Source: Escherichia coli
GTDB lineage: Bacteria > Pseudomonadota > Gammaproteobacteria > Enterobacterales > Enterobacteriaceae
Strand: one strand, 5' to 3'
NCBI RefSeq assembly: GCF_003334385.1
Contig: NZ_QOWN01000191.1
DNA length: 363 nt
In this document: piece after piece, positions 1-363 of the stretch
How positions within the stretch are numbered: the first letter of the stretch is position 1
How the letters are laid out: each line of letters starts with the position of its first letter
Notes under the pieces: model-generated
What the model was told of the DNA's origin: nothing
Databases searched by the model: none
Seen by the model: only the letters and a program-made list of their open reading frames with translations
Made by a program: the position numbers and the translations under genes

Positions 1-363
1 CTGCCTGATGGTGTGGAGACATACGGGGTGTGGGGACTCTCCCTGCCGTCACTGCGCCGTCGCCTGTTCCGCTGTGTCTCCATCCGGGAAAACACGGACG
101 GCACCTTTGCCATCACGGCAGTGCAGCACGTACCGGAAAAAGAAGCCATCGTGGATAACGGGGCCCGCTTTGAGCCGCAGTCAGGCACCCTGAACAGCGT
201 TATCCCACCGGCAGTGCAGCACCTGACGGTGGAGGTGAGCGCAGCTGACGGCCAGTATCTGGCGCTGGCGAAATGGGACACGCCGCGGGTGGTGAAGGGC
301 GTGCGCTTCAGTCTGCGCCTGACCAGTGGAAGCGGTGAGAACAGCCGCCTGCTGACCACCGCC
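1..363 (+). CDS. J: Internal fragment of a phage tail tip attachment / host-specificity protein (lambda gpJ-like central tail fibre protein); partial at both ends, frame +1
   Basis: Frame +1 has no stop codon across all 121 codons (the only TGA/TAA triplets fall in frames +2 and +3). Third-position GC is about 76% (92/121 by hand count), with CTG the dominant Leu codon, as in enterobacterial-type coding sequence. The translation contains RRLFRCVSIRENTDGTFAITAVQHVPEKEAIVDNGA and PPAVQHL...WDTPRVVKGV, which I recognise from memory as near-matches to the middle of lambda J (UniProt P03749). No start or stop is in the window, so gene boundaries are unknown. Not verified by a search. Confidence 0.85.
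   Translation, partial: MPDGVETYGVWGLSLPSLRRRLFRCVSIRENTDGTFAITAVQHVPEKEAIVDNGARFEPQSGTLNSVIPPAVQHLTVEVSAADGQYLALAKWDTPRVVKGVRFSLRLTSGSGENSRLLTTA
116..129. repeat. Copy 1 of a 14-bp perfect direct repeat (cggcagtgcagcac), intragenic and in frame; encodes (T)AVQH
   Basis: Exact string cggcagtgcagcac at 116-129 and again at 209-222. Flanking bases differ on both sides (a/c upstream, g/c downstream). Confidence 0.9.
205..363 (+). other. Probable N-terminal half of a fibronectin type III-like (Ig-like beta-sandwich) domain within the J-like protein
   Basis: Codons 69-121 read PPAVQHLTVEVSAADGQYLALAKWDTPRVVKGVRFSLRL... This follows the usual FN3 opening pattern: Pro-Pro start, a hydrophobic strand A (HLTVEV), a hydrophobic strand B ending in the conserved Trp (YLALAKW), then Pro (DTP). 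Lambda gpJ is known to carry FN3-like domains in its central region. The domain would continue beyond the window. Confidence 0.5.
209..222. repeat. Copy 2 of the 14-bp perfect direct repeat (cggcagtgcagcac), intragenic and in frame; encodes (P)AVQH
   Basis: Identical 14-mer, 93 bp (31 codons) downstream of copy 1, in the same codon phase (gca gtg cag cac in both). Confidence 0.9.

Follow-up and report, generated by a model that had tools for sequence, protein, structure and literature searches.

The 14-bp direct repeat in a 363-nt stretch of Escherichia coli DNA (the window) is very probably a fortuitous feature within a lambdoid J gene, at which rare slippage deletions occur and yield linker-less J proteins that are likely non-functional or neutral. 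Predicted deletion products, in which one repeat copy is kept and the DNA between the copies is lost, were found in natural prophages. Overall, this is ordinary mutational biology and a new instance of a well-known process, with no designed switch.

Judging from its sequence, the window is an internal part of a lambdoid J gene, which encodes the tail tip attachment and host specificity protein. Frame 1 of the plus strand was open over the whole window (1–363), which at the nucleotide level was 95–99% identical to genes from E. coli lambdoid phages and prophages that are annotated as J ("tail tip host specificity protein J"). In a phmmer search against the PDB chains 8iyk_J and 9e7m, the window translation was aligned to residues 549–670 of lambda gpJ with an E value of about 1e-49, i.e., homology to lambda gpJ (TipJ) was found across the hub-to-FNIII region. 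Thus, the assignment to J made in an earlier first-pass annotation was confirmed by both types of comparison. Matches to the window were present in 188 phage records and, at about 9,463 places, in 3,194 of the 5,426 complete E. coli genomes. All six Pfam domains (FNIII-A, Phage-tail_3, Ig_J, Ig_J_second, Phage_Tail_Tip and Ig_GpJ_C) were matched with E values of 1e-22 or better; this architecture was scored on a full-length relative of the Sp11 type, and the window spans only the start of Ig_J. The window itself came without flanks; the gene order in the related loci L082, L083, L085 and L086 was L, K, I, J, lom and side tail fibre.

The 14-mer CGGCAGTGCAGCAC occurred exactly twice in the window, at 116–129 and 209–222 on the plus strand, with 93 nt from start to start. 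A search of the window for further copies with up to two mismatches gave none. The two copies share one reading phase: (ac)g gca gtg cag cac of copy 1 encodes T39-AVQH43 (gpJ 588–591), and (cc)g gca gtg cag cac of copy 2 encodes P70-AVQH74 (gpJ 620–623) at the start of FNIII-1. Coordinates, spacing and codons therefore agreed with the first-pass description of an in-phase repeat encoding AVQH. Shuffling of the window gave repeats of at least 14 nt in 0.02% of trials with mononucleotides and in 0.08% of trials with codon order. Resampling of synonymous codons from J-gene usage, with the protein fixed, gave them in 2.7% of the trials, and because of this the nucleotide repeat is regarded mostly as a by-product of the repeated tetrapeptide. 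About three repeated tetrapeptides within 200 residues are expected per J protein; three were observed in lambda J and eight in the Sp11-type J of O157. The repeat is real and unusual for a single window, yet it is within expectation if many windows and alleles are scanned. Weak inverted repeats were seen beside the second copy, at 205–214/223–232 (10 nt, 90%) and 175–185/222–232 (11 nt, 82%). A slippage-promoting DNA structure was not found, as the single-strand fold of window positions 110–235 was no better than that of shuffles (z = −1.0), and no role is claimed for these inverted repeats for this reason.

The two AVQH sites were compared at the nucleotide level among natural alleles. In 80 IMG/VR alleles of the window type, i.e., with proteins 95–100% identical to that of the window, the longest stretch of in-register agreement between the two sites measured 14 nt in 18 alleles, 13 nt in 8, 9 nt in 49 and 6 nt in 5. 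The commonest state was ACG GCG GTG CAG CAC versus CCG GCA GTG CAG CAC, with GCG at site 1 in 49 of the 80 alleles. Lambda-type alleles shared 8 nt in register in 72 of 79 cases; lambda itself carries ACC GCC GTG CAG CAT versus CCA GCG GTG CAG CAC at a spacing of 96 nt. Synonymous variants at the two sites did not co-vary. The motif TA[VL]QH.PEK at site 1 was kept in homologues down to about 30% identity, and AVQH at site 2 was limited to the E. coli/Salmonella clade, with PPVEH, PPVEN, PQV.. and others in the remaining homologues. The core GTG CAG CA(C/T) shared by the sites uses the preferred E. coli codons for Val and Gln. Judging by these alleles, the nucleotide identity is not maintained and drifts synonymously. 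Since it varies between alleles, since AVQH at site 2 is clade-limited and since the core codons are common, the repeat is best explained by chance and codon bias, as a feature of some alleles only. The earlier suggestion that the identical codons reflect more than the protein motif did not hold, given that the 14-mer was kept in 18 of 80 alleles and that lambda-type alleles share 8–9 nt. The alternative offered by the same annotation, that a GC-rich gene with few codon choices had produced the repeat by chance, turned out to be the best account of its origin.

It was also considered that the two AVQH sites are the relic of an internal duplication or have been homogenised by gene conversion. 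Such an origin would agree with the sharing of one tetrapeptide by both sites, in this allele with identical codons, and with a repeat family that reaches 21 nt at 86% identity. It is scarcely credible, however, as the flanks are unrelated (DGTFAIT-AVQH-VPEKE versus NSVIPP-AVQH-LTVEV), the sites lie in different folds (an HDIV strand and FNIII strand A), distant homologues that keep TA[VL]QH at site 1 have other residues at site 2, and the synonymous variants are independent. Similarity beyond the motif and shared by homologues, by which an internal segment duplication would be recognised, was not seen. As a separate observation, the strand-like motifs AITA (residues 534, 585 and 670) and ITAV (586 and 728) recur around the hub/FNIII region of Sp11-type J, and HMMER gave a weak alignment of ENTDGTFAITAVQH to the FNIII-2 strand region IELTPGYFQITATPH (lambda gpJ 720–736). 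These likenesses probably reflect a similar beta-strand composition and not homology.

The structural setting of the fortuitous repeat was derived from an AlphaFold2 model of Sp11-type J residues 440–720 (37-sequence alignment, mean pLDDT of 84). In the model, the first AVQH ends a strand (584–590), which is followed by a helix (595–602) and a low-confidence loop, and the second AVQH opens a strand (622–631). Transferred to the plus strand of the window, positions 106–126 (F36–Q42, FAITAVQ; model residues 145–151, J 584–590) encode the last beta-strand of the hub domain HDIV, as the domain is defined in PMC10721106. The inter-repeat interval at 130–208, VPEKEAIVDNGARFEPQSGTLNSVIP plus the first base of P70, was assigned as the HDIV-to-FNIII-1 linker on the basis of the model and of the natural alleles that lack this unit; it is predicted to form a short alpha-helix at about nt 139–162 (model residues 156–163) and then a long loop, with pLDDT below 50 at 167–174. 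Positions 217–363 encode the N-terminal part of FNIII-1, which equals Pfam Ig_J, with strand A at about nt 217–246 (model strand from 183–192). The Pfam match of Ig_J (PF24421) covered J 610–713 with E = 2e-40, and repeat copy 2 lies inside it. According to the model, the two repeat copies bracket the linker-coding DNA almost exactly, and the interval 130–208 plus one repeat copy makes up the 93-nt unit that is removable by slippage.

In lambda gpJ, HDIV contains a beta-sandwich/OB insertion at residues 483–569, and strand beta25 is at 570–578 (PMC10721106, PMC11101478). The linker has to bridge the distance between HDIV, which sits at the top of the tip complex, and the FNIII cone (PMC10721106, PMC11101478), and it "disengages and repositions" when the FNIII cone opens upon LamB binding (PMC11101478). 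The homologue linkers had 27–28 residues in nearly all of 65 proteins, the most distant of which are about 30% identical, and none was shorter than 25 residues. The spacing between the AVQH sites was 31 or 32 residues in 47 of 49 protein fragments spanning both sites; these fragments were obtained from a word-indexed protein search and are mostly short J pieces, good for counts of motif and spacing and not for length variants. The earlier reading of the repeat as a route to length variants of the fibre is not supported in an adaptive sense, as the interval corresponds to the hub-to-FNIII-1 linker and not to the fibre shaft, and its length is almost invariant.

Two classes of linker length were observed in J, with AVQH spacings of 31 and 32 codons, which differ by a one-codon indel in the loop at window positions 172–180 (codons 58–60; FE-PQS versus FDG[DE]QS in the Sp11 and lambda types). 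The spacing was 93 nt in 80 of 80 window-type loci and 96 nt in 79 of 80 lambda-type loci. The exception, L117 172–924 (IMGVR_UViG_651053022_000004, contig range 71088–72053), is a lambda-type J with two back-to-back in-frame tandem duplications. The first, of 129 nt (172–300 and 301–429, 94% identical), comprises V549 to H591 and ends exactly at the first AVQH; the second, of 246 nt (433–678 and 679–924, 93% identical), comprises the linker and part of FNIII-1. Neither junction was present in the 5,426 complete E. coli genomes. Since the copies differ by 6–7%, recent slippage is not the cause; L117 looks like alleles of a multi-copy gene that were joined by the assembler, or like an unequal exchange between alleles.

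Probes of 40 nt were designed to span the junctions that a deletion and a duplication would create, and normal alleles can match no more than 27 nt of either probe. The deletion probe was matched over its full length in 3 of the 5,426 complete genomes, i.e., in O157:H7 strains 2571 (40/40) and F6321 (40/40) and in OkiPb01713 (39/40), where the denominator is imperfect as the probe tolerates only about three mismatches. The remaining 25 matches in the complete genomes were partial ones of 34 nt from normal alleles. In alignments of the deletion alleles, window positions 1–115 were joined straight to 209–363, giving the protein junction FAITAVQHLTVEV. Three complete genomes thus contained four gene copies from which precisely the inter-repeat unit is missing and in which a single repeat copy remains, and at least two independent events are represented. 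The deleted unit was 96 bp (32 codons) in both parental backgrounds. The first-pass annotation had anticipated a clean in-frame deletion of 31 codons; the clean deletion was found in 2571 (two copies), in F6321 and in OkiPb01713 and its relatives, but it is one codon longer than foreseen. Its proposed survey of homologues gave a mixed outcome, with exact-unit deletion variants being found and the nucleotide identity of the AVQH sites not being conserved.

Outside the complete genomes, the deletion junction was not found among 50,697 phage records, where the 40-nt probe gave only partial matches to normal alleles, nor with a degenerate pattern in IMG/VR or JGI metagenomes. The duplication junction, whose product had also been predicted, was absent from the 5,426 complete E. 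coli genomes (40-nt probe) and from IMG/VR (degenerate pattern). A search of the literature for described J linker deletions gave nothing relevant, and the papers on lambda gpJ cited here report no mutant that lacks the linker. Slippage between spaced repeats is known to have a strong deletional bias (PMC4948707), and the lack of duplication junctions fits this bias. In summary, two features of a slippage substrate were present: direct copies close to each other (a 14/14 match 93 nt apart here, 96 nt apart in the Sp11-type parent), and natural products with one copy and without the interval in at least two independent backgrounds.

The J allele of OkiPb01713 differed from its sister in 2013C-4974 in two respects only: the 96-nt deletion and a 1-nt indel, by which the sister is frameshifted. 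Before the deletion, the two sites read CGGCGGTGCAGCAC and CGGCAGTGCAGCAC. Since the junction keeps the G, the exchange fell within the 9-nt GTGCAGCAC, and a perfect 14-mer is thus not required. The OkiPb-type deleted protein was encoded on 36 contigs of independent assemblies, including the complete genome CP027597 and many draft (short-read) contigs of 3.6–4.1 kb, one of which was common to at least 20 samples. Six of these contigs were examined and showed 0 nt mismatches in J. Given the 36 contigs and the identity of J in these six, the OkiPb deletion allele is real and inherited in a lineage. In this prophage remnant, lom is frameshifted, and the sister J is a pseudogene by frameshift. An ISEc8 element (IS66 family) was found about 125 nt upstream of the J start, in place of L, K and I (L084 1–2130, L088 1–2132 and L170 1–876). 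In the lineage of OkiPb01713, 2013C-4974 and CP027597, J has either the frameshift or the deleted linker, which gives a snapshot of a prophage decaying in steps.

In O157:H7, the deleted J had 3384 nt, as compared with 3480 nt for the full-length J of the Sp11 type, represented by Sakai ECs_2161 and by the other copy in F6321 itself, in which perfect 14-mers are located at gene nt 1760 and 1856. Between the deleted and the full-length copy of F6321 there were 0 mismatches, i.e., the 96-nt deletion was the sole difference. In F6321, the deletion was confined to the ydfJ-site prophage, and in 2571 both paralogous prophages carried it, one at 1.867 Mb and the other, that of the ydfJ site, at 3.064 Mb. 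The corresponding loci are L082 (CP038425, 1.867 Mb) and L089 23673–27056 (CP038425, 3.064 Mb) in 2571, and L083 and L086 (CP038369) in F6321. The two deleted copies in 2571 could be due to prophage–prophage recombination or gene conversion, to recurrence at the repeat, or to cross-mapping during long-read polishing. The O157 deletion alleles belong to a prophage whose late region appears complete, and the ORFs were otherwise intact.

These properties bear on the view that the deletion alleles are sequencing or assembly artefacts and that the repeat is a pure coincidence without consequence. O157:H7 carries several near-identical prophage J copies, a single long-read project supplied both O157 genomes, polishing cross-talk could have produced the two deleted copies of 2571, and the draft contig L117 shows artefact-like tandem duplications in the same region. 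Nevertheless, an artefact is very improbable: the OkiPb-type protein was present on 36 independent contigs, including Illumina-type contigs of 3.6–4.1 kb and two complete genomes from different laboratories, and the O157 deletion occurred in two strains that differ elsewhere. Moreover, a precise loss of 96 nt at a short repeat is no known assembler error, the repeat being far below any k-mer.

With the deletions accepted as real, the AVQH pair was ranked among the repeats of the gene. In the 3480-nt Sp11-type J, the AVQH 14-mer was the longest exact direct repeat with a spacing of up to 600 nt, followed by a 12-mer (140 nt apart) and by 11-mers that are 108, 408 and 579 nt apart. With an 80-nt query, deletion junctions of the 12-mer pair and of the 11-mer pair at 108 nt were not found in the same complete E. 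coli genomes. This outcome fits the established influence of repeat length and proximity on misalignment deletions. By this repeat ranking and the two negative controls, the AVQH pair is a putative deletion hotspot of J.

It might be asked whether the repeat is a selected, programmed switch, i.e., a contingency locus that toggles the length of J and for which the identical codons are kept. The in-phase repeat keeps the products in frame, no other close repeat in the gene reaches its length, and deletion alleles with an open frame exist. This possibility is nonetheless extremely unlikely, as most alleles share only 8–9 nt between the sites and their synonymous variants are independent. The deletion was rare (3 of 5,426 genomes versus about 9,463 J-like places) and did not occur in the 50,697 phage records, IMG/VR or the JGI metagenomes, no reverse (duplication) product was found in the complete genomes or IMG/VR, and one of the events lies in an IS-truncated prophage remnant. 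There are just two spaced copies and no tandem array. Phase-variable contingency loci are characterised by a tandem array or homopolymer and by frequent reversible change, neither of which was observed here. The deletions look like sporadic slippage and not like adaptive changes, because the linker length is near-invariant and because one deletion lies in the IS-truncated remnant.

Linker-less J alleles might, on the other hand, be functional, with an altered geometry or trigger of the tail tip, and not be dead genes. The frame is kept and the rest of the gene is intact, the late region of the O157 prophage looks complete, and the OkiPb-type allele is unchanged in many isolates. Such function is unlikely, however, since linkers of fewer than 25 residues were absent from the homologues, which extend to about 30% identity, and since the linker must span the distance from HDIV to the FNIII cone and move on opening. 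The OkiPb-type gene lies behind ISEc8 without L, K and I upstream and with lom frameshifted, so that no tail can be made in cis, and the absence of changes is equally expected of a young neutral allele. More specifically, the loss of the hinge could alter closure or triggering, e.g., by a pre-opened tip or another receptor dependence, with the AVQH microhomology as a one-step in-frame route to it; this is very unlikely. Rather, linker-less J has probably lost its function, as indicated by the conservation of linker length and by the published role of the linker. We infer that the deletions were neutral or inactivating and struck prophages that are redundant or in decay, although the O157 alleles, with their apparently complete late region, may retain function.

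The preferred account, a chance repeat with sporadic deletion, may be summarised as follows. AVQH happens to be read both where the last HDIV strand ends and where the first FNIII-1 strand begins; these elements are unrelated, and in this allele both sites use the common E. coli codons GCA GTG CAG CAC. The resulting copies, being close (93–96 nt), GC-rich and in phase, provide a substrate for misalignment. Replication slippage or short-homology illegitimate recombination would then cause the loss of one copy and of the interval, i.e., of the hub–FNIII-1 linker, and such a loss has occurred at least two times in natural prophages. The last HDIV strand is thereby fused directly to FNIII-1 strand A, with the whole linker lost, and the linker-less J is most likely non-functional, or neutral in redundant or already decaying prophages. 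Slippage as the mechanism appears to be the best explanation of the anatomy of the junctions.

The case serves as a worked example in which a tiny chance repeat in raw sequence predicted real deletion alleles in bacterial genomes, and it shows how a prophage structural gene is eroded by slippage at microhomologies. The natural alleles represent ready-made, precise hinge deletions that could be used to test the proposal from cryo-EM that the hinge moves when the lambda tip opens. In addition, one E. coli lineage and a few O157:H7 strains can be recognised by the junction FAITAVQHLTVEV.

Deletions by misalignment depend on the length and the proximity of the repeats. In E. coli, short direct repeats are known to flank spontaneous deletions, which were reportedly described as lacI deletion hotspots by Albertini et al. 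in 1982, and slipped misalignment is said to have been reviewed by Lovett in 2004. A summary of the mechanism is given in PMC4948707. The J deletions resemble the short-repeat deletions in lacI in that a pair of short, GC-rich direct repeats at a distance of about 100 nt is involved and one copy is kept, in that imperfect or shorter homology (9 nt) also works, and in that deletions outnumber duplications. They differ from them in that the events were deduced from natural alleles and affect a prophage structural gene, in which they are in frame by chance. In Sodalis symbionts, deletogenic replication slippage at spaced G+C-rich repeats accompanies genome decay (PMC4948707). Deletions at short spaced repeats under relaxed selection and with a strong deletional bias are common to both cases, whereas in Sodalis the process is genome-wide in a symbiont without repair genes (PMC4948707) and here it concerns a single site in E. 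coli prophages at low frequency. Compared with lambda gpJ (PDB 8IYK, 8XCG and 8XCI; PMC10721106, PMC11101478), the inter-repeat interval equals the published linker, with its long loop and short helix, and AVQH is present at both linker ends there too (residues 588 and 620). In contrast to the window, the lambda sites share only GTGCAGCA in their DNA, and the lambda linker is one residue longer, in accordance with the 32-codon spacing.
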